This document shows positions 19,199 to 55,010 of a DNA stretch of 64,000 nucleotides, in pieces. How positions within the stretch are numbered: position 1 is the stretch's first letter; every line of letters begins with the position of its first letter. This stretch comes from an uncultured bacterium. GTDB taxonomy: Bacteria > Muiribacteriota > CAYSPT01. The DNA is taken from assembly GCA_964593455.1 (NCBI GenBank), contig CAZQHK010000016.1, positions 18,339 to 82,338 of the forward strand. The letters run 5' to 3'. A program made the translations under genes and the position numbers. The notes beneath the pieces were generated by a model, which was given only the letters and a program-made list of their open reading frames with translations, was not told the DNA's origin and ran no database searches.

Positions 19199-19201
19199 CA
19201 G

Positions 19202-20257: not shown

Positions 20258-20317
20258 TGGAGTATACTGGTCCCTGAGCGTAATTGGTGGATTGCTCGGG
20301 TAATCCACGGATAAAAT

Positions 20318-21241: not shown

Positions 21242-21252
21242 TCCGCCAAGTC

Positions 21253-21275
21253 ATTCGCCGGTTTAACCGGCGAAT
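21253..21275 (+). other. Perfect stem-loop ATTCGCCGGTT-T-AACCGGCGAAT immediately after the stop of CDS 20318-21241
   Basis: 11-bp perfect inverted repeat with a 1-nt loop, 12 nt downstream of the TAG stop. No U-tract follows, so it is not a classical intrinsic terminator. It could attenuate transcription or stabilise the transcript. Confidence 0.3.
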
Positions 21276-21505
21276 CCACTGTGACTGGCAACACTGTCAA
21301 TCTATCAAGCAAGCAGGAAATTTTACCCGGGCGGAGGCTTGTCCTTTCCTCCAAACGTATGGGCAAACATTGAGATGTAGCGGAAACCGGGTGGTACCAC
21401 CCTCAAGCAAGACGTGTGGAAAGTGAAATCGGATGACTTAACCGTGTTCACATACGATATCTACACATCCGTGATACAATATTCCAGGTGGATGAAGATG
21501 TAATT

Positions 21506-22978: not shown

Positions 22979-22993
22979 CGGGCTGGATAGGTA

Positions 22994-24211: not shown

Positions 24212-24240
24212 TTTTTGTCATTATTGCTGGGGCGTAAAAA

Positions 24241-26390: not shown

Positions 26391-26400
26391 GCGAGATCTG

Positions 26401-27375
26401 TTGTTATATATACAATCCGGTGATATAATTAGCGGCGCTAAACGGAAAAAGCGCAAAAGCCTTATCTGGCAAGGGAAACGGGCTTCTTCGAAAAAAAGAA
26501 CAGTCTCTCTTTCCGAGGTACGCAGCCGCAACAAAAAACGATTTGGTAAATCGTTTGGAAGACAAAAGGCAGGGCCGGAAAAAGATAGCTTCCGTTCCGG
26601 TGTCAACCGCCGCTTGCGGCGTCTGCGCCGGTTGGTAAGTCCAACCCGTCTAGCGGTCAGATTGGCGCTTATCGTGTTGTTGGTAACGGTGTTTGTGCTC
26701 GAACTGCGGGTGCTGGTGTTTGACATGCCGCTGTTCAGAATAGAGCAGATCGAAGTGGATTCGCCGGAAGGAATTCAGGTCCGCGATATATTGCGTATTG
26801 CCGGTATCAGGAAAAACCAGAGTTCATTAAAATTCGAGCCGGAAATAGTAGCCAGGAAAATTGAGATGCTTCCACAAGTAAAGCAGGTGAATGTTTTCCA
26901 AAACAGTATGGATAAAGTTGTCATCGAGGTCAAAGAGCGGGTTCCGGTTGCCTTCGTGTTGAATAACAATGGGCAGATATTCGAAGTTGATGAAGAAGGG
27001 TACATATTGGGTGAGCGGAACAAAAAGACGCCGTCCACCTTGCCGTTTATCACCGGCGCAAGTACGGAAGTGTTGGAAAGCGGAAAGTGCCTGGAGGATT
27101 CGTCGATCACGGAGGTTCTCGGCTGGTTGCCGCCGCTGGCCGATTTTTTCAATCGTAAAGTGTCGGAGATTAATGTCAGTGACAGTCAGGCCAAATATAT
27201 TTACACGGTTGACGGCATTAAGATATACCTGAACAATGTGGAGGAACTTCGTTCCCAACTGCCGTTTATACTCAGGGTGCTTGGCGAATTGAAAACCAAG
27301 TACACTGGAGTCGAGTACATGGATTTACGGTATAAGTGCGGCCTGGTGATAAAACCCGAGCGAGGGCTGCTCTAG
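26401..27375 (+). CDS. ftsQ: Cell division protein FtsQ/DivIB with POTRA domain and a long basic N-terminal extension
   Basis: TM segment LALIVLLVTVFVL followed by a POTRA-like IEQIEVDSPEGIQVRDILRIAGI region. Position between ddl and ftsA. The first ~75 residues are Arg/Lys-rich; the true start may be further downstream. Confidence 0.7.
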   Translation: MLYIQSGDIISGAKRKKRKSLIWQGKRASSKKRTVSLSEVRSRNKKRFGKSFGRQKAGPEKDSFRSGVNRRLRRLRRLVSPTRLAVRLALIVLLVTVFVLELRVLVFDMPLFRIEQIEVDSPEGIQVRDILRIAGIRKNQSSLKFEPEIVARKIEMLPQVKQVNVFQNSMDKVVIEVKERVPVAFVLNNNGQIFEVDEEGYILGERNKKTPSTLPFITGASTEVLESGKCLEDSSITEVLGWLPPLADFFNRKVSEINVSDSQAKYIYTVDGIKIYLNNVEELRSQLPFILRVLGELKTKYTGVEYMDLRYKCGLVIKPERGLL

Positions 27376-27388
27376 GAGGTGCGTTCCA

Positions 27389-28624
27389 TTGTCCGCTGAG
27401 GACATTATTGTTGCTCTGGATTTAGGTACGGGCAAGGTGACAACTCTGGTAGGGGCTGTGGCTGAAGACGGAAATATCGAGATTATCGGCGTCGGTCAGG
27501 CCCAATCCACGGGGATGAAAAAAGGCGTTGTCATCAATATAGAAGAGACGGTCCGATCGGTGGAGATGTCCGTGGAAGAAGCCGAACGTATGGCTGACAT
27601 CGATATTGACTCGGTTTATATCGGCTTATCCGGTGCGCACATCTCATCCCAGAACAGTCGGGGAGTTATCGCCGTTGCCGGTTCAGACCGGGAGATCACC
27701 CACGAAGATGTGGAGCGGGTAATCGAGGCAGCCAGGGCAGCCCAGGTGAATCCTAACCGCGAGGTCATCCACATTATTTCACGTGAGTTTATCGTCGATG
27801 ATCAACGTGGTATCAAGGATCCGGTGGGAATGTCCGGAATACGGCTGGAAGCGGATGTTCACATCGTTACCGGGGCCGCGACTGCTGTTCAAAACGTGCT
27901 CAAGAGTGTCCAGAAAGCCGGTCTTCAGGTCAGAGATGTCATTCTCAGCAGTCTCGCCTCCGCGGAAGCGGTCCTCACCACCGACGAGAAGGAACTGGGA
28001 GTCTTATTGCTGGATATCGGGGCCGGCACCACGGATATCTGCCTTTTCGTGCACGGTGCCGTTGCTTTTTCCAGTGTCATTCCCCTGGGAGGAGACCATA
28101 TTACCAACGATGTCGCGGTGGGATTGAAGACACCGACATCTTCGGCGGAAACCATCAAGAAACTGCATGGCTGCGCCATGGTCTCGTTGGTGGAAGACAA
28201 AGAACTGATCGAGGTCCCGGTAACCGGGAGCGATAAGGTTCGAACGCTGCCCAAGCGCGCGTTGTGTGAGATCATCGAGCCGAGGGTGGAAGAGATTTTC
28301 CGGTTTGTCCGGGATGATGTGCAGAAATTCGGCGCGGGAGAGATGATTCCCGCCGGGTGTGTTGTAACCGGTGGGACGGGACTTCTGAACGGTATCGACA
28401 GCATTGCTTCAGAGGTCCTGGACATGCAGGTCAGAATAGGGGTTCCGGGTAAGGTGTCCGGACTGTCCGAGAAGGTTAAAAGCTCGGAATTCGCAACCGG
28501 TCTCGGGCTGCTTAACTACGGGATGCGTGACGATCTCGCCGGCGGCGGAGGATCATCATTCATGCCTGCCGGTCTCAGCCGATTGTGGGATCAATTCATG
28601 GGATGGATAAGGAGCATATTCTAG
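27389..28624 (+). CDS. ftsA: Cell division protein FtsA (actin-like ATPase)
   Basis: TTG start. IVALDLGTGKV phosphate-1 motif, LDIGAGTTD phosphate-2 motif and C-terminal amphipathic tail. Confidence 0.9.
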   Translation: MSAEDIIVALDLGTGKVTTLVGAVAEDGNIEIIGVGQAQSTGMKKGVVINIEETVRSVEMSVEEAERMADIDIDSVYIGLSGAHISSQNSRGVIAVAGSDREITHEDVERVIEAARAAQVNPNREVIHIISREFIVDDQRGIKDPVGMSGIRLEADVHIVTGAATAVQNVLKSVQKAGLQVRDVILSSLASAEAVLTTDEKELGVLLLDIGAGTTDICLFVHGAVAFSSVIPLGGDHITNDVAVGLKTPTSSAETIKKLHGCAMVSLVEDKELIEVPVTGSDKVRTLPKRALCEIIEPRVEEIFRFVRDDVQKFGAGEMIPAGCVVTGGTGLLNGIDSIASEVLDMQVRIGVPGKVSGLSEKVKSSEFATGLGLLNYGMRDDLAGGGGSSFMPAGLSRLWDQFMGWIRSIF

Positions 28625-40429: not shown

Positions 40430-40501
40430 AATTCGACTGCTCCTTACGGATTATTGTAGACAGTAAATGGATGTGTTGTCAAATTTTCCGGCGTGTCATG
40501 C

Positions 40502-41827
40502 TTACGGTTTCGTTGGTAACAGACTATGTTGTTTGAGTCCCTGGTACACGAGATCGGCGATAATTTCGTGACCGCGAGCGTTCGGGTGAAGGGGATCGGC
40601 TTTCGGGTCTACGAACAGGTACTCGTCTTGAAAAGCCCTGAAGGCGGACACCACGTCCACCAGCGGCAGACCATTTTTAACTGCCAGTTCAGCCATGAGC
40701 CGGTTGTAGAGGTGTCCGTCCTGGCCGCAGCGGAAGGATTCCATGTCTTTTGCCTTTTGGAAGTTATTGACCGCCTCTTCAGTGTCGCCCTTTTTCCGGG
40801 AACAGACACCCAGCCAGTAGTAAGCTTCACTCAGGTACTTGTTGATTTTTACCGCCTCGGCTAGTTTGACCAAGGCCTCGTCGTGCCGCCCGGTTTCGGC
40901 CAGTTTAAGGGCTTTTTGCAAGAGCGCGTTTGCCTGCGTTATCGCCGTTTCCGGCAGTTGTTCGGGAGAGGGAAGGTTCACTGGCATCTTGAGAAGCAGG
41001 ACCTTGATTCCCTTTTCCCGGGCAAACTCGATAATATGGTTCAGATTCTCCGTGTAGTGTTCCGGCGGCACGCGCCGCGCCCCGGGAAAATAGATGTTGG
41101 TTTTGAATTTATCGAATCCCACGTTGCGGGCCGAGAGATGGAAAGATAGTTTCTCGACTAACCGGAGAAAGGCGCTCCTGAAGAGCATGTTTTTTATCCC
41201 GATAATCACGGGATTAGAGGAAGAAAGGCTGCGGTCCGGTGTTCCGGTGCTCCGGAAAAACCGGTACCGGTCAAGATCGTTCAGTACATAGGAAACAGTG
41301 ATAAGGTCCGGTTGTAATTTTACGACATGTTTTTTCAGCAGGCGCAGTCCCTGGTGGGTAGTGTAGCCGATGACCGATCCGTTGAACACTTCCACGGTCC
41401 CGCTATACTCCTTTTTGAGCCGCGCGGCGAGCCGGGACGAGTAAATCTTATCGTAGTCCACTCCCCATCCGAAGGTGGGCGATGCTCCCATGCAGATGAT
41501 TCTGAAGGTGCCGGACTCCTTCGAGTCAGGCAGGCGGGAGTTTCGAAATCCGAACCGGTCCGTAGTAACCGCCACGTTCTGGAAACTTACCTGGGCGTTG
41601 GGCCGCTGTCGCCAGAATAATTCCGGGTCTTGTTTGAGAAAAGCCAGTATAGTATCGAGATGGTCTTCAACGAAGATCAACCGGCTGGCGCTTTCCAGCG
41701 TCAGTAACAAGAACAGGGCGAAGAGCAGGCAGATGATTTTAGCCTGTTTAGAGTGGACATCTATGGTGTGGTCTGATTCCGGTGCCGTTCCAGCAATCCG
41801 GTTTGAATCGGTGTTCTGTTCAGTCAT
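40502..41827 (-). CDS. SGNH/GDSL-like hydrolase with an embedded TPR region and N-terminal TM anchor
   Basis: N-terminal TM segment. Block I variant ICMGASPTFGWG. Block V DPLHPNARGH (DxxH). TPR-like region ALVKLAEAVKINKYLSEAYYWLGVC. Confidence 0.6.
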   Translation of the reverse strand: MTEQNTDSNRIAGTAPESDHTIDVHSKQAKIICLLFALFLLLTLESASRLIFVEDHLDTILAFLKQDPELFWRQRPNAQVSFQNVAVTTDRFGFRNSRLPDSKESGTFRIICMGASPTFGWGVDYDKIYSSRLAARLKKEYSGTVEVFNGSVIGYTTHQGLRLLKKHVVKLQPDLITVSYVLNDLDRYRFFRSTGTPDRSLSSSNPVIIGIKNMLFRSAFLRLVEKLSFHLSARNVGFDKFKTNIYFPGARRVPPEHYTENLNHIIEFAREKGIKVLLLKMPVNLPSPEQLPETAITQANALLQKALKLAETGRHDEALVKLAEAVKINKYLSEAYYWLGVCSRKKGDTEEAVNNFQKAKDMESFRCGQDGHLYNRLMAELAVKNGLPLVDVVSAFRAFQDEYLFVDPKADPLHPNARGHEIIADLVYQGLKQHSLLPTKP

Positions 41828-43274
41828 GATTTTTTTCTCCCGGGCCTCCGGCCAGCTTTCGTATGATGTACGCCTGGATAATCAAGGCTATAATGTTCAT
41901 GAATTTCTTAAAAAAATCGAGTTTGCGCGGTGCTTTTCGGAACGTTTTCCAGATTCTTCCCGGTCTCAGGAAAAACCGTTGCTGGGCGATAAGGATGAGC
42001 TCGTTCAGTTCCCTATTCGGGATATCGGAGCAGGACCGCTCAACTGAGTAGAAATGATAGTCGTCATACGATTCCGGCTCATCGAGCCGGCCGCTTTCCA
42101 GCAGTGACCGGTAGAGTTCCGAGCCGGGGTAGGGGGTGACCTTGAAAAAATAGGCCACGTCGAGATTGGACGCGACGGCGAAGTCGATGGTTTTCAATAT
42201 TTCTTCCCTGGTCTCGGTGGGAAACCCGAACATGAAGTAGGCCCCGGTGATGATTCCCGCGGCGGCTGTCCGGTTGATGATCTGAACGGCTTTCGGGATA
42301 TTGAGATTCTTCCTGATAAGCCGCTGAAGCCGGGGAGTAATGGTCTCGAACCCGTAATGGATCTTATAGGTGCCGATTGCTCTCAAATCATCGATGAGAT
42401 TTTCCTCCATGATATCCGCCCTGAGACCGTTGGGAAACGCGAAAGAGAATTGCATCTTCGAGCCCATGATCATGGCGCAGAGCTTTTTTGCGCGTTCCGG
42501 GTCGAAGTTGAACACATCGTCGATAATGTGGATCTCCGGGACACCGAGGGTGTGATGAAGATACTCGATTTCCGCAAAGACGTTCTCAGGCGACCGGGCT
42601 CTGACTTTCTTGCCGAAAACGTTGTGGCAGTAGGAGCAGTGAAACGGGCATCCCCGGGTGGTTACCAGGGGCGCGTAAAATCGCTCTTTCAGCTCCCCGT
42701 TCCAGTTGGAATAGGCGGCGTAAATCTTAGGATCGAGAAGGTCCCAGGCTGGAAACGGCAGCTCGTCGAGGTTCTCAATCAGGTTCCGGGGATTAGTTAG
42801 AGCCGGCTCACCGTTTTTCCTGTAAGCCAGTCCGGCAACACCGTTTACGGTCCCTTCTTCCTCCAGGGCATCGAGCAGTTCCACGATGGTTCTCTCTCCT
42901 TCTCCGATCACGGAGAAATCGATGTTTTGGTCGTTTAGCAGCTGCTCCTTAACCACTACGGTGTGCGGTCCGCCGGCGATAACTACCGTGTTGCCGTCGT
43001 GTTCCTTGACCTGCCCAGCTATCCGGTGCAGGAGATCAGCTTCGCAGCTCATGGAACTGAGTCCTACCAGGTGCGGGTTAAAATCGGCCAGGAGATTGGA
43101 GAAATCTTCAGGCGAAGATGGATTGGTGCCGGTATCGTAGATTTTGAACTGGTAGCGGTCGCCGAATTGTTTCCTGATGGCCGCCGCGATATAGAGAAGT
43201 CCCAGGGGCGGAACAGGTCCTCCCGCTCCCAAGAGCTTGAATGTCCTGATGAGCAGAAAACGTTTCTTCTTCAC
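41820..43274 (-). CDS. B12-binding-domain radical SAM protein (class B radical SAM)
   Basis: N-terminal cobalamin-binding Rossmann-like domain (FLLIRT...PPLGLLYIAAAI...VVIAGGPH). Radical SAM cluster CPFHCSYC. GTG at 43274 with AGGAA RBS avoids overlapping the upstream small gene; the ORF call extending to 43337 is the over-extended alternative. Confidence 0.8.
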   Translation of the reverse strand: MKKKRFLLIRTFKLLGAGGPVPPLGLLYIAAAIRKQFGDRYQFKIYDTGTNPSSPEDFSNLLADFNPHLVGLSSMSCEADLLHRIAGQVKEHDGNTVVIAGGPHTVVVKEQLLNDQNIDFSVIGEGERTIVELLDALEEEGTVNGVAGLAYRKNGEPALTNPRNLIENLDELPFPAWDLLDPKIYAAYSNWNGELKERFYAPLVTTRGCPFHCSYCHNVFGKKVRARSPENVFAEIEYLHHTLGVPEIHIIDDVFNFDPERAKKLCAMIMGSKMQFSFAFPNGLRADIMEENLIDDLRAIGTYKIHYGFETITPRLQRLIRKNLNIPKAVQIINRTAAAGIITGAYFMFGFPTETREEILKTIDFAVASNLDVAYFFKVTPYPGSELYRSLLESGRLDEPESYDDYHFYSVERSCSDIPNRELNELILIAQQRFFLRPGRIWKTFRKAPRKLDFFKKFMNIIALIIQAYIIRKLAGGPGEKNHD

Positions 43275-43281
43275 GGTATTC

Positions 43282-43443
43282 CTAGAAGAACGCGTATATT
43301 GCCGGCAGAATCGATTGATTGCCAGTAAGTCCCACAAAAAGACCGAGCAAGGCGAGTACGAAAAGGAGTGGCAGCAACCACCATTTCTTGTTTTCCTTGA
43401 TAAGCAGGAACAGGTAGATCAGCAAATCCTTATTGCTATTCAT
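43282..43443 (-). CDS. Small membrane protein resembling the DUF5989 family
   Basis: 53 aa: MNSNKDLLIYLFLLIKENKKWWLLPLLFVLALLGLFVGLTGNQSILPAIYAFF. The pattern KKxWLLP...LLG...LT...S...P.IY.F matches my recollection of the DUF5989 family, whose members neighbour carbamoyltransferase/SxtJ-type genes. The ORF call from 43626 is probably over-extended. Confidence 0.45.
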   Translation of the reverse strand: MNSNKDLLIYLFLLIKENKKWWLLPLLFVLALLGLFVGLTGNQSILPAIYAFF

Positions 43444-43617
43444 CTGCGGCAGCGTTTTTTTGGCTGGTTTTTTTTCCACTTTGCTTCGATCCCTTCCTCT
43501 AGCTCTTAACGAGCCCAAGAGGGTGAAAAGTTCATTAAAAAGTGTATCATTGATACGTTTATTGTGCAAGAGCCGCCGTCCGGACATCAGTTGACAGTCT
43601 TCAGGCGGCCAAGTAAA

Positions 43618-45426
43618 ATGGAACATATGAAAACGCTCCAGGATCTTGCTTCATCCCTTGAATCGAAAGGGGAATCTAAGGCTCTTTCATGGAAGCAGGG
43701 CGGGGATATTGTTTCTCATTCGTACCGGGAATTAGGCCGCCGCGTTCGTGATTTCAGCCGGGGATTCCTGAAGATGGGTTTGAAACCGGGCGATACGGTC
43801 GTCTTGCTTTCGCACAATAACCCGGAGTGGATAGGCTTGAGTCTGGGGCTCAACAACGCCGGCCTGGTTGATGTCCCGCGGGGCGAAAACACCACCTCCG
43901 ATGAGATCAAGTACTTTATCGAGCACAGCCGGGCCGGGGTAGTTATCGTCCAGAACAAGACGTTTTTGAAAATGGTGCGCGATCTCGATCTCCCCGACCT
44001 GAAAACGATCATCTCCATGGAGAAAATTGATGGTGTCCGGCATACATCCGAGGTGCTCGCTGCCGGGAAAAACAGTTCGGTTACTGTTCCGGAAGTGACT
44101 CCCGCTACCACCGCCAGTCTGATCTACACTTCGGGGACCACTTCGCTGCCCAAGGGAGTCGAGCTGACACACGGCAATTTTTGCAGCAATATCAGGAGCC
44201 TGGTCAAATTTCTTCCCATCAGTACGAAAGACAAGTTCATATCGATTCTGCCTGCCTGGCACGCCCTGGAGCGTATTTCAAAATATATGACCCTGACAGT
44301 CGGCGCGGAGACGTTCTATTCGACCTGGCGCACGCTCAGGTCCGACCTGCTGGAACAGAAACCAACCATCATGGTTTCCGTCCCCCGGATCTGGGACATG
44401 ATCTATACCCGGCTAATGAAACGGGTCAAAGAGCAAGGCGGTCTGAGCCGCCGGCTTTTCTCCGTTGGCATGAAAGTGTCCATCGATTACGTCCGCCGCC
44501 GCCGTGAGTTCGAGTTGGTTAAACTGTTCGAGTACCCGTTCTACCATTACATGGACCGGCACGTTTTTTCACGGCTGCGAAAAAGAATGGGTGGCCGGTT
44601 CAGGTTCGCCGTTTCGGGAGGGTCTTCCCTGCCGCGGCACGTGGACGATTTCTTCCGGGTGGCCGGAGTGGAGATTCTGGAAGGATACGGTTTGACGGAG
44701 ACCAGCCCGGTGGTGGCCCTCAGGGTCCCCGGAAACACGGTCCCGTACACCGTCGGTCCGGTGTTGGAAGACATAGAAGCCAGGATTATCGACCAGGAAA
44801 CGGAAGAAGTTCTCCCGCTCATGGAAAAGGGAGTACTTCATGTCCGGGGCCCAAATATCATGAAAGGGTATTACCGGAATCCCACTGAGACGAGCCGTGT
44901 ACTTCAGGGTGACGGGTGGTTTAACACCGGTGATATCGGGTATTTCACCAGAAAAGGCGATCTGGTCATTACCGGCCGGGCAAAGGATATCATCGTTCTC
45001 TCCAACGGCGAGAACATCAACCCGGTTCCCATGGAAGACGTCCTGAAAGAGAGCGAATATATCGCCGAAGCCATCATGGTCGGGCAGGAGTGGAAACAGC
45101 CCGGGGCCCTGATCGTACCTGATTTCGATACGTTGCGGGAATACTGCGATCAAAATGGTATTTCCTATCATTCGGACCGGCTGTATGACGTTTTCAGTAA
45201 CCCGAATATCAAACAACTTTTTACTGCCGAGATCGACCGGTTGCTCAATAGCCAATCCTGGTGTAAGTCGTACGAAAAAATCCAGAATTTCCGGATGGTG
45301 TACGCGCCGTTTACCGTGGGCAAGGAGTTGACGCCGACCTTGAAACCCAAACGGGCGGTCATCGAAGAGCTGTACAAGGAGTTAATCGAAAGTCTCTGGC
45401 TTTCCATTCACCAGAAGAAACGGTAG
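43618..45426 (+). CDS. Long-chain acyl-CoA synthetase (AMP-dependent synthetase/ligase, FAA1/FadD15 type)
   Basis: AMP-binding motif IYTSGTTSLPKGVELTHGN, EGYGLTETSP and TGDIGYF...GRAKDII motifs. Divergent from the DUF5989/radical-SAM operon. Confidence 0.85.
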   Translation: MEHMKTLQDLASSLESKGESKALSWKQGGDIVSHSYRELGRRVRDFSRGFLKMGLKPGDTVVLLSHNNPEWIGLSLGLNNAGLVDVPRGENTTSDEIKYFIEHSRAGVVIVQNKTFLKMVRDLDLPDLKTIISMEKIDGVRHTSEVLAAGKNSSVTVPEVTPATTASLIYTSGTTSLPKGVELTHGNFCSNIRSLVKFLPISTKDKFISILPAWHALERISKYMTLTVGAETFYSTWRTLRSDLLEQKPTIMVSVPRIWDMIYTRLMKRVKEQGGLSRRLFSVGMKVSIDYVRRRREFELVKLFEYPFYHYMDRHVFSRLRKRMGGRFRFAVSGGSSLPRHVDDFFRVAGVEILEGYGLTETSPVVALRVPGNTVPYTVGPVLEDIEARIIDQETEEVLPLMEKGVLHVRGPNIMKGYYRNPTETSRVLQGDGWFNTGDIGYFTRKGDLVITGRAKDIIVLSNGENINPVPMEDVLKESEYIAEAIMVGQEWKQPGALIVPDFDTLREYCDQNGISYHSDRLYDVFSNPNIKQLFTAEIDRLLNSQSWCKSYEKIQNFRMVYAPFTVGKELTPTLKPKRAVIEELYKELIESLWLSIHQKKR

Positions 45427-46974: not shown

Positions 46975-47616
46975 ATGGGCAAGCGTAAGCGTATCGGACT
47001 CGACTTTGACAATACCATCGTCGGTTACGACGAGCTGTTTGCGACTCTGGCACTCGAGCAGGGGATGCTCACAAGGGTTTCGGAGGGTGGGAAACCGGCT
47101 ATCCGTGAAAACCTGCGTTCAAAAGGCGAGCAGGGTGAGCTGGAATGGCAGCGATTACAGTCTCTCGCGTACGGAGCCCGTATCGGCGAAGCCAAGCTGA
47201 TCGAAGGGGTCGCTCCCTTTATTCTCTCCTGCCGCCGACGGAACTGTGAACTTTTCATCGTCAGTCACAAGACACGCTATGCCGGTATGGATCCCGGCGG
47301 TGTAAATCTTCGCCGGGCGGCACTTGATTGGATGTCCGCCAGGAATTTTTTCGATGAAGCCGGCCTCGGCTTCAAACGTGCCGACATCTATTTTGCCGGC
47401 ACCCGTTTTGAAAAGATAGAACGGATCCGCTTACTTCGATGTGACCTGTTTATCGACGATCTGATTGAAGTATTTACCAACCCGGCTTTTCCCACCGATG
47501 TCGAAGCTGTTCTCTTTAGTCCGGGACCGGGGTTTGATAGAAAGGCTTCTAGCGGCGTAAAGAGGGTGGCGGCTTTTGTTTCGTGGAAGGATATCGCGGG
47601 CCATGTGTTTAAGTAA
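46975..47616 (+). CDS. HAD-superfamily hydrolase-like protein
   Basis: N-terminal motif I GLDFDNTIV (DxDxT). Confidence 0.6.
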   Translation: MGKRKRIGLDFDNTIVGYDELFATLALEQGMLTRVSEGGKPAIRENLRSKGEQGELEWQRLQSLAYGARIGEAKLIEGVAPFILSCRRRNCELFIVSHKTRYAGMDPGGVNLRRAALDWMSARNFFDEAGLGFKRADIYFAGTRFEKIERIRLLRCDLFIDDLIEVFTNPAFPTDVEAVLFSPGPGFDRKASSGVKRVAAFVSWKDIAGHVFK

Positions 47617-48655
47617 TGATCATGGTGAAACATTATCAGCCTTGAAAGAGGAGACTGAACATCTGGCCGGCATACCCGTGACGCATATAAAACCGGTATC
47701 GGGCGGCCGAAACAACCGCGTTTACCGGGTGCGGTTAACCGACGGCCGATGTCTGGCGCTCAAAAAATATTTTCACTCTCCGGAAGATCCCCGGGATCGG
47801 CTCCGGACCGAGTTTTCCACACTTCGTTTCTTGTGGGAAAACGGAATCAATTACGTGCCGGAACCGGTTGCCTGCGACAGAGAATCCGGAATAGCGCTTT
47901 ACCGTTGGATTGAAGGTGAAAAGGTGGCCGACCCGGCTGCCGGGGACATCGACCGGGTGGTGGATTTTTTGTCTGCTCTCAAGCGGCTGGCCGGCTGCCC
48001 GGCGGCTGCCTCGCTGAGGCCGGCGTCGGAGGCCTGCCTTTGCGCTGATGAATTGATTGCACAGGTTGAAGCACGGTTCGAGAGACTGAGTTGTGTGGCC
48101 ACCGATTATCCGGAGCTGGAGAGGTTCCTGAGAGAACGGTTACAGTCCAGAATTCACTTGGTGAAGGAGCGGCTGCTGAACGGATATGCTGATAATGGAC
48201 TCTCCTGTTCGGAGGATATCGAGATGGCGTTTCGTACGTTGTCACCGGCAGATTTTTGTTTTAATGATACATTGTATTCTTCAGACGGGATTCTATTTTT
48301 TCTCGACTTCGAGTACTTCGGGTGGGATGATCCGGTGAAAATGCTTTCTGATTTCCTGCTGCATCCGGGAATGAAAATATCTCTCGAACTTAAGGAACGG
48401 TTCCTGAACGGAACATTCAACGTGTTTTCCACCGACCGGTATTTTCCGGTGCGCTTGAAACTCCAATACCCGATGTACCTGCTTCGCTGGAGCCTTATTA
48501 TTCTCAATGAGTTTCTACCCGAGGTCTGGAGCCGCCGCTCGTTTGCCGGGGCAGGCGCCTCCCGGGCCGCCAGGAACAAACAGCTTGATAAGGCTGAATC
48601 ATTTCTGCGTGGTGTTGAACACGATGACATGGCTCCGTTCCTCCAGTGCCTTTAA
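47603..48655 (+). CDS. Aminoglycoside/choline-kinase-like phosphotransferase (APH family)
   Basis: Catalytic-loop-like ADFCFND and metal-binding LDFEYFGWDDP (IDFE...DP) motifs of the APH/ChoK fold. N-terminal nucleotide-binding region VSGGRNNRVYRV...ALKKY. Confidence 0.6.
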   Translation: MCLSNDHGETLSALKEETEHLAGIPVTHIKPVSGGRNNRVYRVRLTDGRCLALKKYFHSPEDPRDRLRTEFSTLRFLWENGINYVPEPVACDRESGIALYRWIEGEKVADPAAGDIDRVVDFLSALKRLAGCPAAASLRPASEACLCADELIAQVEARFERLSCVATDYPELERFLRERLQSRIHLVKERLLNGYADNGLSCSEDIEMAFRTLSPADFCFNDTLYSSDGILFFLDFEYFGWDDPVKMLSDFLLHPGMKISLELKERFLNGTFNVFSTDRYFPVRLKLQYPMYLLRWSLIILNEFLPEVWSRRSFAGAGASRAARNKQLDKAESFLRGVEHDDMAPFLQCL

Positions 48656-48760
48656 AATCTCCAACCTCACTTTCTACACCTCTTCAGAGCACTTCTGGTA
48701 TAATATCAAGTCTGGCCAATAATTGCGGGAATCGGCAGGAAGAACGGTAACGGTGGCGAC

Positions 48761-50341
48761 ATGACAGGCGAAAACATGGCACGGGAGTGCACCTCAAGCG
48801 GTTCCGGGCGGTGGTACATCTGGCTGCTCGTGGTAGCGATCTTGATCGGTGTCTCTCACACGTTATTGTACCGGGACTGTTCGGTCGAGGATTCTTATAT
48901 CGCGTTCAAGTACATTGACAACTGGTATCGGGGTAACGGATTTACGTACAACGTGGGAGAACCGGTTGAAGGGTACTCCAACTTCCTATGGCTGGTGTTT
49001 ATCGGGGCCGGCCGGGTACTGAAGATTTCCGAAGCGGCCCGTTGGCTCGGCGGTCTTGTGGGGTGGCTCCCGGGGGAATCCGGTGATGTGCTTTGTGCCA
49101 GGATCCTAGGTACAATTATCTTCGCTCTTATTATCCTTATCGGGGCGACGATGGTGCGGCGTCAATTCGGTACCGGCGCCGGTGCCGGCGCTGCCTTGCT
49201 GCTGGCTTTAAGTTTCCCTCTTTCCTTCTATTCGGTGACCGGTCTGGAGACCGGTTTTTTTACCTTGTTGTTGACTGTTACCGTTTTCAGGTATCTGGAC
49301 AACCGCTGCCGTATCGATCTCATGACTGTCCTGCTCCTGCACCTGGTGGCGGTAAGTCGCGTGGAAGGCGTGCTTTATTTCTTCCCGTTCTTTGGTTATG
49401 ATCTTTTCTCCGCCGGGAAATGGCACCGCCGCCACACATTGTCGCTGGCTGTGTTCTCCGTGCTTGGACTGGGATTTATCTCCTGGCGATGGTGGTATTT
49501 CGGGTCCGTGCTCCCGCAGGTTTTTTTCGCCCGGTTCCCGTTGAACGATCCCACCGTCAAACTTCCCTGGATTCTGCGTGGATTCGATGATATGGTTCTG
49601 TTCATCAGGAGCACCGGCGGCATTCTGGGGGGGCTTCTCATCCTTTGCAGCCTGGGATCAAAGATGTTTCGCCGGCGTGTCGGGTTCCTGCTGTGGGTCA
49701 TAGCTGCCGGTCTCGTATTCCAAAAGTTAGTGGGCGGAGATTTTATGCTGGGGGCCCGGTATCTTATTCCGGTGCTTCCCTGTTATTTGGCATGTTTACT
49801 GGGGGCTGTTTCCCGGGTGGTGGACAGGCTTTCTAAAGACGCCATGTTCACCTGCCCGCTTGGAAATGTGAAACTACCTTTGATAGTGACTCTGGCAGTA
49901 ATCTGGGGTATTTTCCAATTTTCACAAACCGTGGAGTTTCTGGCGTATCCGATGCGCTACCCGAACTTCCTGATGCATTCCCGGACCCTGAGAACCACCG
50001 CCAACTGGTTGAAGGAACGTTACGACAAAAACACGGTCCTTTCGTGTTGGCGATTTGGCGCGGTGGGATATGTTTCCGGTTTAAAAATCAGAGACCTGGA
50101 AGGAATCGTTGTCCGGGATACCGGCCGGAACCGTTTTCGTAGGGCCCTCGGCCTGGAGCCGGCTATTGAGCGGGAACGTCCTGCTCCGGATCTTATCCTG
50201 GAACCGTTTTCCACCGACATTCACCTTGAAGAGAAGGAAGTCTCCCGGTACGATAATCGTTACCGGTTGATTCATCTGTTTCCCATCGCGGAAGGGGTTA
50301 CCTGGCGGCTTTTGGAGATCGTTCCCGGCGAGAAACAGTAA
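48761..50341 (+). CDS. Polytopic membrane protein, putative GT-C-fold glycosyltransferase (ArnT/PMT-like)
   Basis: About 12 predicted TM helices. Conserved Asp-containing first loop DSYIAFKYIDNWYRGNG. Soluble C-terminal domain. Context of sugar-modification genes. Assignment by architecture only. Confidence 0.4.
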   Translation: MTGENMARECTSSGSGRWYIWLLVVAILIGVSHTLLYRDCSVEDSYIAFKYIDNWYRGNGFTYNVGEPVEGYSNFLWLVFIGAGRVLKISEAARWLGGLVGWLPGESGDVLCARILGTIIFALIILIGATMVRRQFGTGAGAGAALLLALSFPLSFYSVTGLETGFFTLLLTVTVFRYLDNRCRIDLMTVLLLHLVAVSRVEGVLYFFPFFGYDLFSAGKWHRRHTLSLAVFSVLGLGFISWRWWYFGSVLPQVFFARFPLNDPTVKLPWILRGFDDMVLFIRSTGGILGGLLILCSLGSKMFRRRVGFLLWVIAAGLVFQKLVGGDFMLGARYLIPVLPCYLACLLGAVSRVVDRLSKDAMFTCPLGNVKLPLIVTLAVIWGIFQFSQTVEFLAYPMRYPNFLMHSRTLRTTANWLKERYDKNTVLSCWRFGAVGYVSGLKIRDLEGIVVRDTGRNRFRRALGLEPAIERERPAPDLILEPFSTDIHLEEKEVSRYDNRYRLIHLFPIAEGVTWRLLEIVPGEKQ

Positions 50342-50356
50342 CAGGAGAATACTTCT

Positions 50357-51205
50357 ATGGCTACAGAGTTTCATTCATCAGCCGACGGCCGCCGCACGTT
50401 GCTTGACGAACGTTCAAAACACCTTCGCCGCCTGGTCATCCGCGGACTCCAGGGAGGTAACCGGGGGCATCTGGGTTCTTCGTTATCGCTGATTGAAATA
50501 CTGCGGGTGCTTTACGATGATGTGCTGCGTTACCGGTCGGAAGAACCCTGGTGGGAGGGACGGGACCGATGTATTCTCAGCAAAGGGCACGGCTGTCTGG
50601 CTCTCTACGCTGTTTTGGTAGATAAAGGGTTTTTCCCCGCGGTAGAACTCGATCGTTTCTGCCGGTTTGACGCGGTTCTGGGCGGACATCCCGAGCGGGG
50701 CAAAATCCCGGGAGTCGAAGCTTCTACCGGGGCGTTGGGACACGGTCTTTCCATGGGAGTCGGGATGGCTCTGGCTCTCCGGGCCAAAAAAAAAGATTCC
50801 AGGGTTTTTGTGGTCATGGGTGATGGGGAGATCAACGAAGGTTCGGTCTGGGAGGCAGCCATGAGTGCCTCCAAACATAGACTTTCCAACTTGATCGCCC
50901 TGGTTGATTACAACAAGATCCAGTCGTATGGGCCTACGAGAGAAGTACAGGAACTCCACCCGTTGCCGGCCAAGTGGGAGAGTTTTGGGTTTGCTGTGCG
51001 TGAGGTTGACGGCCATGATGTAATGGCCTTATTCGAGCAGTTAAGCGATCTCCCGTTTAGCGCCGGCAGACCCGGTGTTGTCATCTGTCACACGGTCAAA
51101 GGGAAAGGGATTTCGTTTGCCGAGGGAAATCCGAATTGGCACCACAAATCCCGGATGAAACCGGAAGATTTTCAGTCTATGTATCGGGAAATTGAAGGGT
51201 ATTGA
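50357..51205 (+). CDS. Transketolase, N-terminal (TPP-binding) subunit of a split transketolase
   Basis: GHLGSSLS, SKGHG and GALGHGLSMGVGMAL, with the TPP-binding GDGEINEGSVWEA motif. Confidence 0.9.
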   Translation: MATEFHSSADGRRTLLDERSKHLRRLVIRGLQGGNRGHLGSSLSLIEILRVLYDDVLRYRSEEPWWEGRDRCILSKGHGCLALYAVLVDKGFFPAVELDRFCRFDAVLGGHPERGKIPGVEASTGALGHGLSMGVGMALALRAKKKDSRVFVVMGDGEINEGSVWEAAMSASKHRLSNLIALVDYNKIQSYGPTREVQELHPLPAKWESFGFAVREVDGHDVMALFEQLSDLPFSAGRPGVVICHTVKGKGISFAEGNPNWHHKSRMKPEDFQSMYREIEGY

Positions 51206-51208
51206 TTC

Positions 51209-52132
51209 GTGCGCAAGACCTGTCTCAACATGGTATATGAACTGGCCCGGAAAGATCCCCGGGTGCTCTTCATCGGATCCGATCTGGGGCCCGGTACCCT
51301 GGACCGGTTTCGGCAGGAGATGCCGGACAGGTTCTTCATGGAAGGTGTTTACGAGGGACATGTGGTCGGTATGGCGGCCGGCCTGGCCATGGAAGGATTT
51401 ATCCCGTATGTAAACACCATCGCCTCGTTTCTCACTCGCCGCTCATTCGAACAGGTAGTAATCGATCTTTGTCTGCAAAACTTGCCGGTGCGGCTTATCG
51501 GCAACGGGGGAGGGTTGGTGTACGCGCCCCTGGGGTTGACCCATATGGCGATAGAGGATATCGCTATTTTCAGGACCCTGCCAAACATGACCGTGGTGGC
51601 GCCCAGTGACGCTGAAGAGATGCGCCGGTTCATGGAAAAAAGCATCAATCTGCCCGGCCCTGTTTATATCCGCCTGGGAAAAGGTGGGGATCCCGTTATC
51701 TCACGGGATGAGAACGGTTTCACCATCGGCCGGGGAATCTTGTTGAAAGAACCGGGCCGGGTCCTGTTCATAGCTACGGGGGTGATGACCGGCCGTGTTC
51801 TTCAGGCCTCGGATATCCTGGATGGGCAGGGAATTACGGCGGGAGTTCTTCACGTCCACACGGTCAAACCTCTGGATGAGGATCAGATAGCCGGCCTGGT
51901 CGAGCGGGTGGAGGCCGTGGTCACGGTAGAGGAGCATGTTTTAATGGGTGGACTGGGGAGCGCCGTGGGCGAGCTTCTTATCGACCGTGGCGGCCGTGTC
52001 CCGAAGATGTTCAGGTTGGGACTCCCCGACCGGTTTCCGGAACGCTACGGCCGGCAGGATGATCTGCTTGAATTTTATGGTCTTCAGCCGGAACCCATCG
52101 CCCGGTCGGTGAGCGATTTCATGGCCCGGTAA
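51209..52132 (+). CDS. Transketolase, C-terminal (pyrimidine-binding) subunit of a split transketolase
   Basis: GTG start 3 nt after the N-subunit stop. FFMEGVYEGHVVGMAAGLAMEG and the transketolase C-terminal domain. Confidence 0.9.
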   Translation: MRKTCLNMVYELARKDPRVLFIGSDLGPGTLDRFRQEMPDRFFMEGVYEGHVVGMAAGLAMEGFIPYVNTIASFLTRRSFEQVVIDLCLQNLPVRLIGNGGGLVYAPLGLTHMAIEDIAIFRTLPNMTVVAPSDAEEMRRFMEKSINLPGPVYIRLGKGGDPVISRDENGFTIGRGILLKEPGRVLFIATGVMTGRVLQASDILDGQGITAGVLHVHTVKPLDEDQIAGLVERVEAVVTVEEHVLMGGLGSAVGELLIDRGGRVPKMFRLGLPDRFPERYGRQDDLLEFYGLQPEPIARSVSDFMAR

Positions 52133-52152
52133 TGAGGAAGGTTTAAACTATC

Positions 52153-52815
52153 ATGAAAGAGCTGCTGAATATTGTTACTCCGCTTCACCGGAAAACCAGC
52201 CGGGACTACGTGGGGCGCATGAACGACGGCAAGGTGGAGTGTATGGAGGTGGCCCGGCGGTACGGCCGTGAATTCTGGGACGGTAACCGGCGGTACGGTT
52301 ACGGCGGGTATAGCTATGACGGGCGCTGGGAACCGGTGGCCAGAAGCCTTATCGAGCAATACGGGCTGAGCGCGGACGCGGCTATCCTCGATGTCGGCTG
52401 CGGGAAAGGGTATCTTCTGCACGAGTTGAAGAAACTACTGCCACAGGCTCGACCAGCGGGTTTTGATATCTCCGGGTATGCCGTTGCCAACGCCAAAGAG
52501 GAAATACGTGACACTCTTTTTGTCAGCAATGCCCGTGACCCGTTCCCGTTCGATGATGCTGAATTCGATCTGGCTATTTCCCTGACCGCGCTCCACAACT
52601 TGCGGGTAAACGAGCTCAAGGCGGCCCTGGCTCAGATGGAACGCGTGGCCCGGAACAAGTACCTGGTGGTAGAAAGCTATCGCAGTGAACTGGAGCTTTT
52701 TAACCTCCAGTGCTGGGCCCTGACATGCGAGTCTTTCTACGATCCGCGGGAATGGGTGTGGCTGTTTAACGAGTTCGGTTACACCGGGGACTACGAGTTC
52801 ATATATTTTGAGTAG
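52153..52815 (+). CDS. Class I SAM-dependent methyltransferase
   Basis: Motif I ILDVGCGKGYL and post-I acidic residue. 220 aa. Confidence 0.75.
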   Translation: MKELLNIVTPLHRKTSRDYVGRMNDGKVECMEVARRYGREFWDGNRRYGYGGYSYDGRWEPVARSLIEQYGLSADAAILDVGCGKGYLLHELKKLLPQARPAGFDISGYAVANAKEEIRDTLFVSNARDPFPFDDAEFDLAISLTALHNLRVNELKAALAQMERVARNKYLVVESYRSELELFNLQCWALTCESFYDPREWVWLFNEFGYTGDYEFIYFE

Positions 52816-52826
52816 GGGAAAACTCC

Positions 52827-53897
52827 ATGGGACTCCTGTATACTGGAATGAAGATCTTTCATTTCAAAGATAAACTCGATTCTCTGCCCGCCGCCCACCA
52901 GGGAATTCTGCCACCGCTTCACGTGCGGATCAAACCTACCAACGTCTGCGCGCATAAGTGCCGCTACTGCGCCTACCGGATGGATAGTCTACAGCTTGGC
53001 CGGGACATGGAGGAGAGGGATACCATTGCGCGGGACAAGATGCTTGAAATTCTGGACGACCTGATCGAAATGGGAGTACGGGCGGTTACGTTCAGCGGCG
53101 GTGGCGACCCGTTTTACTACCCGCACCTCACCGAAGCGGTAAAGAAACTGGTTGCCAGCCCGGTCAAGTTTGCCTCTCTCACCAACGGTGCCCGGCTGGA
53201 GGATGAGCTGGCTGAACTTTTTGCTCACCACGCCACCTGGCTCAGGGTTTCCATCGACGGATGGGACGATTCGAGTTATGCCCGGTATCGCAATGTCCCT
53301 GAAGGAGAGTTCAGCCGGGTGATGAATAACATGGAACGCTTTAAAGAACTGGCCGGACCGTGTTACCTGGGAGTGAGTTTTGTGGTGGATAAGGAGAACG
53401 CGTCTCACGTCTACGAATTCATCATGAAGCTTCGCGATATCGGGGTGGACAGCGTCAAGGTGTCTCTCTGTATCGTCAGTAACAGCGGTCGGGAGAACAA
53501 CGAGTATCATCAACCTCACTTCGAGCTCGTGCAGAGGCAGATAAACCGGGCGTATTCCGATATCCGGGACGAACGGTTGGAGATCTTCAACTCTTATCAC
53601 CATGACCTGGAGACGTTTAAGAAACGATACCGTTGGTGTCCCTACATCCAGATACTGCCGATTATCGGGGCCGATCTTAACGTTTACTCCTGCCAGGATA
53701 AAGCGTACAATCTCGAGGAAGGTCTGATCGGCTCTCTCAAGGAGTGTTCGTTCAAAGAGTTCTGGTATTCAGGTAAAGAGAAATTTTTCACTGTGGACCC
53801 GTCGTGTCACTGTAACCATCACTGTGTGGCGGACGAGCGCAACCGCAGAGTGCTGGAGTACCTGGACGCCGACCCGGACCACGTGGTTTTTGTGTGA
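52827..53897 (+). CDS. Radical SAM enzyme with Cys-rich C-terminal region
   Basis: CAHKCRYCAY (CxxxCxxC) near the N-terminus, FSGGGDP glycine-rich motif, and additional C-terminal cysteines (CPYI...YSCQD...CHCNHHC) suggesting an auxiliary cluster. Confidence 0.75.
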   Translation: MGLLYTGMKIFHFKDKLDSLPAAHQGILPPLHVRIKPTNVCAHKCRYCAYRMDSLQLGRDMEERDTIARDKMLEILDDLIEMGVRAVTFSGGGDPFYYPHLTEAVKKLVASPVKFASLTNGARLEDELAELFAHHATWLRVSIDGWDDSSYARYRNVPEGEFSRVMNNMERFKELAGPCYLGVSFVVDKENASHVYEFIMKLRDIGVDSVKVSLCIVSNSGRENNEYHQPHFELVQRQINRAYSDIRDERLEIFNSYHHDLETFKKRYRWCPYIQILPIIGADLNVYSCQDKAYNLEEGLIGSLKECSFKEFWYSGKEKFFTVDPSCHCNHHCVADERNRRVLEYLDADPDHVVFV

Positions 53898-53912
53898 TTT
53901 GGAGGACCCAGA

Positions 53913-55010
53913 GTGAAAATTCCTTATCGCGATCTCAGCGTCAAGGACCTGCGGCGTAAACGCGAACTTCTGGCGGCCGTGGAAAAGGTTCTCTCTCATG
54001 GCCGGATGATTCTCGGCCCGGAGGTCGGTCGGTTCGAGCAGCTGATGGCCGATTCATGCTCAAAACAGTATGCGGTGGGGGTCAGTTCCGGTACCGACGC
54101 CCTGTACCTGGCTCTTCGCAGCCTGGGAGTCGGGCCGGGAGACGAGGTAATCACCACGCCACTTTCCTGGATTGCCACCACCAATGCCATCGTTCAGTGC
54201 GGCGCCGAAGCGGTGTTCGTGGATATCGGCGAGGATTTGAACATCGACGCCGATCTCATCAGTGAGGCCGTTACACCCCGGACCAGGGCCATACTGCCGG
54301 TACATTTTACCGGCCGTCTCTGTGCCATGGATACCATCCTGCATATTGCCGGGGAGCGAAATCTCCTGGTTATTGAAGATGCGGCCCAGGCTTTCGGGGC
54401 GCGCCGGGGAGAAAAGCAGGCGGGTTCTTTCGGGCATGCCGGCTGTTTCAGCATGAATCCCATGAAAATCTGGTGCGCCTGCGGTGAAGCCGGCGCCGTA
54501 GTGACCGATGACCGTGACGTGTATGAAAAGCTTTGTACGCTCAGGTACGCCGGTACGGTCAACAAGGAGGACTGCCATTACCCGAGCTTGAACGGGCGCA
54601 TCGACACGGTGCAGGCAGCCATGCTGCTGGTGGATTTTAATTATCTTCCGGAAAAAATCGCACGGCGGCAGGAGATTGCCCGCGTTTACACCGAAGGTCT
54701 CCATGATTTGGTGGGTTGTCCGCGGGAAGACGGTTCTTACCATTGCTACTACTCTTACACGGTGCTGGCCGAAAAGCGGGAAAAGCTGGTTGAACACCTG
54801 TCCGGGAAGGGTATCGAAACGAAAGTTCAACATCCGATCCTGATACCCTACCACACTGCCTATAAGGATCGTACCTATCCTCCGCTGCCGGTGGCCGAGC
54901 GGTTGGTGAACCGGATTCTCTGTCTTCCCAACCAGGAAGACCTGTCCACAGAGGAGATCGATTACGTGATCGGTTCGGTTCGGGAGTTCTACGAGGGGCA
55001 GGCACCATGA
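53913..55010 (+). CDS. DegT/DnrJ/EryC1/StrS-family PLP-dependent sugar aminotransferase
   Basis: GTG start after GGAGGA. Typical DegT blocks (ILGPEVGRFEQLMA, VSSGTDALYLAL, EDAAQAFGA) and conserved lysine in SMNPMKIW. Confidence 0.9.
   Translation: MKIPYRDLSVKDLRRKRELLAAVEKVLSHGRMILGPEVGRFEQLMADSCSKQYAVGVSSGTDALYLALRSLGVGPGDEVITTPLSWIATTNAIVQCGAEAVFVDIGEDLNIDADLISEAVTPRTRAILPVHFTGRLCAMDTILHIAGERNLLVIEDAAQAFGARRGEKQAGSFGHAGCFSMNPMKIWCACGEAGAVVTDDRDVYEKLCTLRYAGTVNKEDCHYPSLNGRIDTVQAAMLLVDFNYLPEKIARRQEIARVYTEGLHDLVGCPREDGSYHCYYSYTVLAEKREKLVEHLSGKGIETKVQHPILIPYHTAYKDRTYPPLPVAERLVNRILCLPNQEDLSTEEIDYVIGSVREFYEGQAP

Follow-up and report, generated by a model that had tools for sequence, protein, structure and literature searches.

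DltX, a membrane microprotein, has an invariant tyrosine in its C-terminal FXYXXF "acyl shuttle" hexapeptide, and this tyrosine takes D-alanine from the MBOAT protein DltB and gives it to the catalytic serine of DltD, a membrane-anchored enzyme of the SGNH fold. The DltX of Lactiplantibacillus plantarum ends with NQAKFIYNEF. Other MBOATs bear the hexapeptide at their own C-terminus (NgPatA ends with FIYANF), and the SGNH enzyme PatB accepts acetyl-FIYANF as a donor; MBOAT pathways without a DltX-like microprotein were described in the same paper as the FXYXXF motif. In the present work, a locus in a 64-kb stretch of contig CAZQHK010000016.1 from an uncultured bacterium (the whole stretch is called the window) was analysed. 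Three minus-strand genes of this locus encode a DUF5989 microprotein, a B12-binding-domain radical S-adenosylmethionine (SAM) enzyme and an SGNH protein with a tetratricopeptide repeat (TPR) insert, designated SGNH_A. The comparison of the published FXYXXF systems with the features of DUF5989 leads to the conclusion that the microprotein has a DltX-like architecture.

The window locus is a reduced member of a widespread, undescribed gene cassette. The original prediction for this DNA, made from the sequence letters, had proposed an uncharacterised lipid or envelope-polymer tailoring pathway; the conserved cassette, the radical SAM-linked DUF5989 subfamily and the DltX-like C-terminal tyrosine motif are points beyond it. 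From evidence that is comparative throughout, we tentatively propose as the leading explanation that DUF5989 and its SGNH partner or partners could form a tyrosine relay which modifies an envelope polymer without an MBOAT.

The DUF5989 microprotein and its terminal tyrosine

The microprotein matched the Pfam model PF19451 (DUF5989) at positions 4-49 of 49 with an E-value of 2.9e-13 and 50.1 bits versus the cut-off of 27, and the DUF5989 assignment of the original prediction was thereby accepted in the Pfam search it had called for. The same model was matched by 18/18 aligned orthologues. The protein starts with a basic N-terminus and the KKWW motif, continues with a single transmembrane helix and ends, after a short polar linker, in a C-terminal tail. 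Since a Lys-rich stretch precedes the helix, the positive-inside rule predicts a topology with the N-terminus inside and the C-terminus outside. In the alignment with 17 orthologues, the invariant residues were K32, which precedes the helix, L35 and P37 at the helix start, and P59, I61, Y62 and F65 in the tail. The mean column identity of the microprotein was 57-62%, versus 53% for the radical SAM enzyme and 40% for SGNH_A.

The profile search over 1.84 billion cluster representatives resulted in 1,235 DUF5989 members (E ≤0.001, 50% identity clusters), and 7,430 database relatives were scored. The tails were counted on the best 150 of the 1,235 representatives. An exact C-terminal Y-x-x-F was present in 140 and F-x-Y-x-x-F in 96 of them, with FIYTLF occurring 53 times and AIYALF 13 times. 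Among 18,473 other open reading frames (ORFs) of the same loci, the corresponding numbers were 18 and 3, respectively. The DUF5989 proteins linked to the radical SAM enzyme form a large subfamily of their own. The literature search found no paper mentioning DUF5989 and none tying SxtK, or microproteins besides DltX, to an acyl shuttle.

The 65-aa form of the microprotein, starting from GTG 43479, is more likely than the 53-aa form because a Shine-Dalgarno-like GGAAGGG is located 11 nucleotides (nt) upstream of this codon and the homologues are 60-80 aa long. Contig JAMYFY010135808.1 (GCA_024711725.1) matched the window across the 21 kb compared, and the DUF5989 gene is uncalled there. Elsewhere, the sequence has been called as a 114-aa ORF (window 43282-43626, minus strand), which is an annotation gap for small ORFs.

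The radical SAM-type cassette

From a one-genome-per-species collection, 79 related loci were retrieved and then searched with profiles of the window proteins. Synteny was counted in the closest 27 of them (identity of at least 41%) and in the 31 non-redundant loci, of the 79, with DUF5989 beside the radical SAM orthologue. In 25 of the 27 closest loci DUF5989 was on the same strand as the radical SAM gene, in most of them directly upstream; the loci were labelled as Omnitrophota, Myxococcota, Elusimicrobiota, Planctomycetota, Thermodesulfobacteriota and Gottesmanbacteria. In 21 of the 31 loci, no more than 60 nt separate DUF5989 from the radical SAM gene downstream of it, and most of the remaining ten have an intercalated cassette gene.

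Unsupervised clustering of all neighbour genes in the 31 loci gave only four recurrent families besides DUF5989. These were the radical SAM enzyme, SGNH_A (about 430 aa, 23 loci, including the window protein), a second SGNH-TPR type, likewise membrane-anchored, termed SGNH_B (about 500 aa, 21 loci) and a PP-loop protein (282 aa, 20 loci). At least one SGNH gene lay no more than 4.5 kb from the microprotein in 30 loci, and 21 loci had two. The order of the full cassette is SGNH_B, DUF5989, radical SAM, PP-loop ATPase and SGNH_A, and the window contains its short form, DUF5989, radical SAM and SGNH_A. The PP-loop protein and SGNH_B were both absent from the 64-kb window, where the sole extra "SGNH" match was a TPR match within a GT2-TPR protein; the two closest relatives of the window (68-69% identity) are likewise without the PP-loop gene. 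In the neighbourhood comparison, which the original prediction had suggested, the trio proved to be the core of a cassette of five genes that is conserved. The PP-loop protein, with SGGTDST and a cysteine-rich CGLCKLxMH...RCFQ motif, matched Pfam DUF7411 in one member (29.7 bits versus the cut-off of 28.7), QueC being just under the cut-off, and may be an adenylating, sulfur- or ammonia-transfer enzyme.

The grouping of the trio is not due to chance, since the synteny is conserved. That the three genes are unrelated neighbours, or that the microprotein ORF is spurious, could be argued from the missing gene call in GCA_024711725.1 and from the promoter and terminator scans of the region, the counts of which stayed within the shuffled expectation; the scans were therefore excluded from the evidence. 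The synteny data already contradict this explanation, with order and strand conserved across at least six phyla and gene spacings of -8 and +7 nt, and the 50-bit Pfam match and the numbers of database relatives and cluster representatives given above count against it as well. It was considered extremely improbable.

The four genes of the original prediction are all present at the positions it gave (Table 1); its description of the three minus-strand genes as overlapping holds in part. The SGNH_A start overlaps the radical SAM stop by 8 nt. The radical SAM gene, in turn, most likely starts at GTG 43274, 7 nt past the DUF5989 stop and without overlap; this start gives MKKKRFLLI and is preceded by AGGA. 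Between the SGNH_A stop and a pilT-like ATPase gene, a near-consensus sigma-70-like site (TTGACA, 18 nt, TACAAT) was noted at 40453-40482 on the minus strand, which suggests that the trio ends as a unit there; the site counts of this region did not exceed those of shuffled sequence.

In the FIYTLF subfamily of DUF5989, 80 metagenomic loci were retrieved, and the 14 flanked on either side by 2.5 kb or more were counted. A NodU/CmcH-type carbamoyltransferase was present in 12-13 of these, SxtJ in 12 and an SGNH gene within 3 kb in 9, which agrees with the earlier statement that DUF5989 normally accompanies carbamoyltransferase and SxtJ genes. The saxitoxin cluster has the order sxtI (carbamoyltransferase), sxtJ, sxtK (165 nt) and sxtL, and the decarbamoylation by sxtL was assigned by prediction. 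Judged by its size and position, sxtK is probably a DUF5989 member. The sxtL gene is of the GDSL type. Neither a carbamoyltransferase nor SxtJ was detected by Pfam scans in the 40 largest of the 57 window ORFs, and the two were not recurrent in the 31 radical SAM-type loci, one of which (L007) has a separate carbamoyltransferase-type pair. In the window cassette, the radical SAM enzyme therefore takes the slot that is held elsewhere by the carbamoyltransferase and SxtJ.

An alignment of 37 SxtJ proteins showed about three transmembrane helices and almost no invariant residue (one Trp, one Pro). Many of these proteins terminate in a basic residue followed by Gln and an aromatic residue. One SGNH protein beside a carbamoyltransferase-SxtJ-DUF5989 set (L101:8547-9713, minus strand) passed the Pfam AlgX acetyltransferase model PF16822 with 31.8 versus 26.5 bits.

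Table 1. Positions of the genes and features discussed, in window coordinates unless another locus is named.
Feature	Position	Strand	Remarks
SGNH-TPR gene (type SGNH_A)	40502..41827	-	441 aa; membrane-anchored SGNH hydrolase or transferase with TPR insert
SGNH_A N-terminal signal-anchor helix	41675..41749	-	helix 27-51 in model
SGNH_A catalytic span	40586..41482	-	Ser116 (GASPT, 41480-41482), Gly154, Asn183, Asp411, His414 (40586-40588)
SGNH_A helical TPR insert	40673..40951	-	between blocks III and V; Pfam TPR residues 298-362; model helices 293-385
Radical SAM ORF	41820-43337	-	open back to TTG 43337
Radical SAM gene, likely form	41820..43274	-	484 aa from GTG 43274; B12-binding-domain radical SAM enzyme
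Radical SAM cluster motif CxxxCxxC (CPFHCSYC)	42627..42650	-	C195, C199, C202 invariant in 33 orthologues
Radical SAM C-terminal helix, basic then hydrophobic (RKAPRKLDFFKKFMNIIALIIQAYIIRKL)	41850..41924	-	helix 437-461 in AlphaFold2 (AF2) model
DUF5989 microprotein gene	43282..43479	-	65 aa from GTG 43479
DUF5989 microprotein, shortest version	43282-43443	-	53 aa from ATG 43443
Microprotein transmembrane helix (WWLLPLLFVLALLGLFVGLT)	43324..43383	-	from hydropathy scan and alignment
C-terminal hexapeptide A-I-Y-A-F-F, then stop codon	43285..43302	-	candidate acyl-shuttle motif; Tyr62 at 43294-43296
AMP-binding acyl-CoA synthetase	43564-45426	+	divergent from the minus-strand trio
Sugar/glycan-tailoring block, one part	46975-55010	+	213-aa ORF without family match, APH-type kinase, 526-aa protein with 8 transmembrane helices and without family match
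Sugar/glycan-tailoring block, rest	46975-55010	+	split transketolase, SAM methyltransferase, second radical SAM enzyme, DegT aminotransferase
PP-loop protein	L008:11586-12476		also in 19 other loci

The enzymes of the cassette and the neighbouring genes

The SGNH_A protein of the window matched Pfam Lipase_GDSL_2 (5.7e-19), and TPR_1, TPR_2 and TPR_11 were above their cut-offs. It belongs to the SGNH superfamily by its fold and by its blocks I (Ser), II (Gly), III (Asn) and V (Asp-x-x-His). The catalytic residues are intact: in 51 SGNH_A orthologues S116, G154, N183 and H414 were invariant and D411 was at least 90% conserved. The GDS, G, GxN and DxxH blocks are retained in SGNH_B as well. One N-terminal transmembrane segment, following a short basic stretch, was found in 46 of the 51 orthologues, and because this anchor predicts such an orientation, the catalytic domain of SGNH_A is predicted to be extracytoplasmic, as in DltD and PatB.

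The radical SAM enzyme matched Pfam B12-binding (1.9e-17) and Radical_SAM (2e-21) and is of class B by its N-terminal B12-binding domain and CxxxCxxC core. Pfam thus upheld all the domain calls of the original prediction, SGNH with TPR, B12-binding radical SAM and DUF5989. The enzyme has thousands of database relatives, of which 33 were aligned. The basic-hydrophobic C-terminal helix was kept in 33/33 aligned orthologues with a 17-residue hydropathy of 1.0-2.6, and it may be a membrane-surface anchor. The best NCBIfam scores were 155.7 for BchE (cut-off 481), 150.5 for the Sden_1168 P-methyltransferase (575) and 149.7 for HpnJ (578), i.e. a quarter to a third of the cut-off for the three best-matching named subfamilies. 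The scores stayed below every curated cut-off of B12-radical SAM subfamilies (BchE, HpnJ, HpnR, PhpK/Sden_1168, ladderane, ApyD and others). The enzyme lies outside the characterised clades: the placement in a non-lipid clade such as BchE, named in the original prediction as its refutation, did not occur, and nothing in the NCBIfam scores places it in a lipid clade either.

The AF2 model of the radical SAM enzyme had a pLDDT of 89.4, and the nearest solved folds were class B enzymes; the PDB sequence matches were weak. The identity to the class B enzymes TsrM, CysS, TokK and MgmA and to the B12-domain dehydratase AprD4 was only 17-21%, and the window enzyme differs from the class B enzymes in the conserved basic-hydrophobic C-terminal helix. 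The fold and family searches gave only generic class B neighbours, and the assignment of a substrate class by this route was rejected. The literature search gave nothing on this pairing of radical SAM and SGNH proteins. Distant radical SAM paralogues (37-41% identity) occur in tandem arrays of 6-10 B12-radical SAM genes without DUF5989 or SGNH nearby (L033, L036, L039, L040, L043, L050, L051, L060, L061 and L062; Zixiibacteriota, Calditrichaeota, LCP-89 and unclassified metagenome-assembled genomes).

The strongest rival to the tyrosine relay is a pathway resembling those of peptides that are made on ribosomes and modified after translation (RiPPs). There the microprotein would be the substrate: the radical SAM enzyme, with the PP-loop ATPase where present, would modify the tail in the cytoplasm, the helix would carry the tail across the membrane, and the outward SGNH protein would act as a peptidase and release a small modified tyrosine peptide. 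A small ORF directly upstream of a radical SAM gene is the classic precursor-maturase layout, and MgmA, a close structural neighbour of the radical SAM enzyme, methylates a protein side chain. The block II glycine of SGNH_A is of the hydrolase type, and the closest solved structure to SGNH_A is CgnD, the leader peptidase of crocagin. This esterase-fold enzyme, which the crocagin study purified and crystallised in recombinant form, cuts the C-terminal Ile-Tyr-Trp core from the precursor, a peptide with a tyrosine in its C-terminus, and a carbamoyltransferase is present in the cluster. SGNH_A differs from CgnD in its predicted N-terminal membrane anchor and TPR insert, and the identity is 19%.

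The tail of the microprotein is invariant across phyla, which is unlike a variable core, and the peptide, conserved over its whole length, is a genuine transmembrane protein. One DUF5989 copy per locus stands beside the radical SAM gene, the sole second copy being of the carbamoyltransferase type and situated elsewhere in its locus. No RRE/PqqD or SPASM domain was found in the radical SAM enzyme by the Pfam scan, and the DUF5989 family also works with carbamoyltransferases where no radical SAM enzyme is present. With these points weighed, the RiPP-like pathway was judged to be unlikely. If true, the cassette would yield a conserved, exported, tyrosine-derived peptide product, which would also be new.

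The divergent acyl-CoA synthetase, which the original prediction had linked to the trio, matched Pfam AMP-binding (5.1e-76); its nearest NCBIfam models were a long-chain ligase and FadD11, yet it was under both cut-offs. The proposed link was not sustained, as no homologue was found beside the cassette in any other locus. The homologues were confined to the source contig's own copies, and therefore the synthetase was rejected as a cassette member and most likely stands beside the trio without being related to it. The pilT-like ATPase, the 354-aa, the HAD-like and the 526-aa membrane proteins were likewise rejected, having no close homologue near the cassette elsewhere. The same applies to the APH kinase, split transketolase, methyltransferase and DegT protein, no orthologue of which recurs near the cassette; at the Pfam level APH, split transketolase and DegT were each met once near a cassette elsewhere.

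Among the 138 genes neighbouring the cassettes, the glycosyltransferases GT2, PMT_2 and GT9 were among the most frequent families, and no lipid-synthesis family was found within the 25 most frequent Pfam families. These neighbours, together with the sugar-tailoring block nearby, are mildly supportive of a relay towards an envelope polymer. Of the lipid or envelope-polymer tailoring proposed originally, the envelope-polymer part is plausible and the lipid part received no specific support.

Under the lipid alternative, the synthetase would feed a membrane lipid or lipid-linked precursor, on which the radical SAM enzyme would carry out methylation or cross-linking; the SGNH protein would remodel this lipid as a lipase or acyltransferase, and DUF5989 would be no more than a membrane scaffold. 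The B12-radical SAM enzymes GrsA/B and Hgm do act on membrane lipids, the HpnJ, HpnR and ladderane models were among the weak NCBIfam matches, the C-terminal helix of the radical SAM enzyme could sit on the membrane, and the synthetase is of the long-chain type. However, it is only in this genome that the synthetase and the cassette are adjacent, the cassette surroundings show no recurrent lipid-synthesis family, and neither the invariant tyrosine motif at the terminus nor the general pairing of DUF5989 with SGNH proteins would be explained. The cassette also occurs in Gottesmanbacteria. These are bacteria of the candidate phyla radiation, which largely lack lipid synthesis. The lipid alternative was accordingly considered quite unlikely.

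Several observations concern the wider surroundings. In L003 (2635-8267) and L007 (15356-19792), extra B12-radical SAM and SGNH-TPR copies were found with an LPG_synthase_TM protein, an FGE-sulfatase, a sulfatase and methyltransferases, which suggests a modular expansion of the system. The sugar/glycan-tailoring block of the window is only a few genes away from the trio. In a Myxococcota chromosome the cassette sits amid unrelated housekeeping genes, and in a Myxococcota genome an APH kinase is divergent from it. The window also contains a division and cell-wall (dcw) cluster (17810-28624, plus strand) with two Mur ligases, MraY, FtsW, MurG, Ddl, FtsQ and FtsA.

A possible tyrosine relay and the known systems

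In the proposed relay the microprotein would span the inner membrane, the N-terminus being on the inside and the tail on the outside, and the invariant tyrosine within the last six residues would carry an acyl-type group. The SGNH enzyme outside the membrane (Ser116, Asp411, His414) would take the group onto its serine and then transfer it to an envelope polymer, or remove it. The cytoplasmic radical SAM enzyme, joined by the PP-loop ATPase in cassettes that have one, would produce or change the relayed group or would change a lipid-linked acceptor. The results themselves establish the gene content, the synteny, the conserved motif, the intact SGNH catalytic residues and the N-terminal membrane segment; from these we infer everything functional, including the loading of the tyrosine, its route without an MBOAT or AT3 protein, and the nature of the group and of the acceptor.

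A number of results weigh against such a relay. No MBOAT, AT3 or other plausible membrane loader was found in the window, none was recurrent in the 31 loci and none was among the 25 most frequent Pfam families of the 138 neighbours; the multi-transmembrane proteins of the window are MraY, FtsW and the 526-aa protein without an assigned family. SxtJ, the membrane partner in the carbamoyltransferase-type subfamily, is missing here as well and was rejected as a catalytic loader, having no invariant polar or catalytic residues. We know of no precedent for a radical SAM enzyme as the donor-making step of an acyl relay. The first position of the motif is Ala, not Phe, in the radical SAM-linked subfamily, and no Pfam DltX match was obtained for 18 DUF5989 members with E-values up to 10.

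The SGNH_A protein also gave two adverse results. In PatB and OatA the block II glycine is replaced, and this atypical block II favours transfer over hydrolysis; the paper in question reports no block II results on DltD or on further SGNH acyltransferases. Unlike PatB and OatA, SGNH_A retains the canonical glycine. Its placement beside DltD, PatB or OatA by fold was rejected, as it groups with generic esterases, CgnD first; PatB was ranked 26th in the fold search and DltD was outside the top 60. In view of this counter-evidence, the locus is not filed as a Dlt or MBOAT-SGNH system and, at most, probably works like one.

A broader and rather unlikely proposition is that DUF5989, including SxtK, represents a third route of tyrosine-mediated transmembrane group transfer, needing neither MBOAT nor AT3. 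A tail-anchored microprotein would be loaded by a cytoplasmic enzyme, in the common form a carbamoyltransferase and in the present cassette a radical SAM enzyme acting alone or together with a PP-loop ATPase, and would hand the group to outward SGNH transferases decorating envelope polymers in at least six phyla. The DUF5989 family is large. If its tyrosine acts as in DltX and PatA, the tyrosine acyl-relay principle, so far limited to MBOAT and AT3 systems, would gain a third set of partners, and new transferred groups would be possible, carbamoyl or a radical SAM product. The genes sxtJ, sxtK and sxtL would then get a testable function, as would a cassette that is common in Omnitrophota, Elusimicrobiota, Planctomycetota and Myxococcota.

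Compared with the Dlt relay (DltX/DltB/DltD), the similarities are a single-helix membrane microprotein of about 50-70 aa, the invariant tyrosine three residues ahead of a terminal Phe (FIYNEF in DltX, FIYTLF in the DUF5989 consensus, AIYAFF in the window) and an SGNH-fold enzyme on an N-terminal membrane anchor encoded with the microprotein. In contrast to the Dlt relay, the conserved cassette is without an MBOAT, a carrier protein and a DltA-type ligase, position 1 of the motif is Ala, homology to DltX is undetectable, and the cytoplasmic partner is a radical SAM enzyme. With PatA/PatB, other MBOAT-SGNH systems and the AT3-SGNH protein OatA, the locus shares a tyrosine segment at the outer membrane face, an external Ser-His-Asp SGNH enzyme and a context that is often glycan-related. 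In those systems the motif is fused to the MBOAT; SGNH_A differs from PatB and OatA further in its TPR insert, and these two ranked below ordinary esterases in the fold search.

The carbamoyltransferase-SxtJ-DUF5989(-SGNH) cassette has the same microprotein family, a frequent SGNH partner and the same order logic of a cytoplasmic enzyme, a membrane microprotein and an SGNH protein. It differs from the present cassette, where a radical SAM enzyme is found instead, joined by the PP-loop ATPase in the full form, where the tail is AIYALF versus FIYTLF and where the SGNH proteins have TPR inserts. Relative to the known systems, the locus is best described as a putative MBOAT-free form of the tyrosine-relay/SGNH kind, coupled to a radical SAM enzyme.

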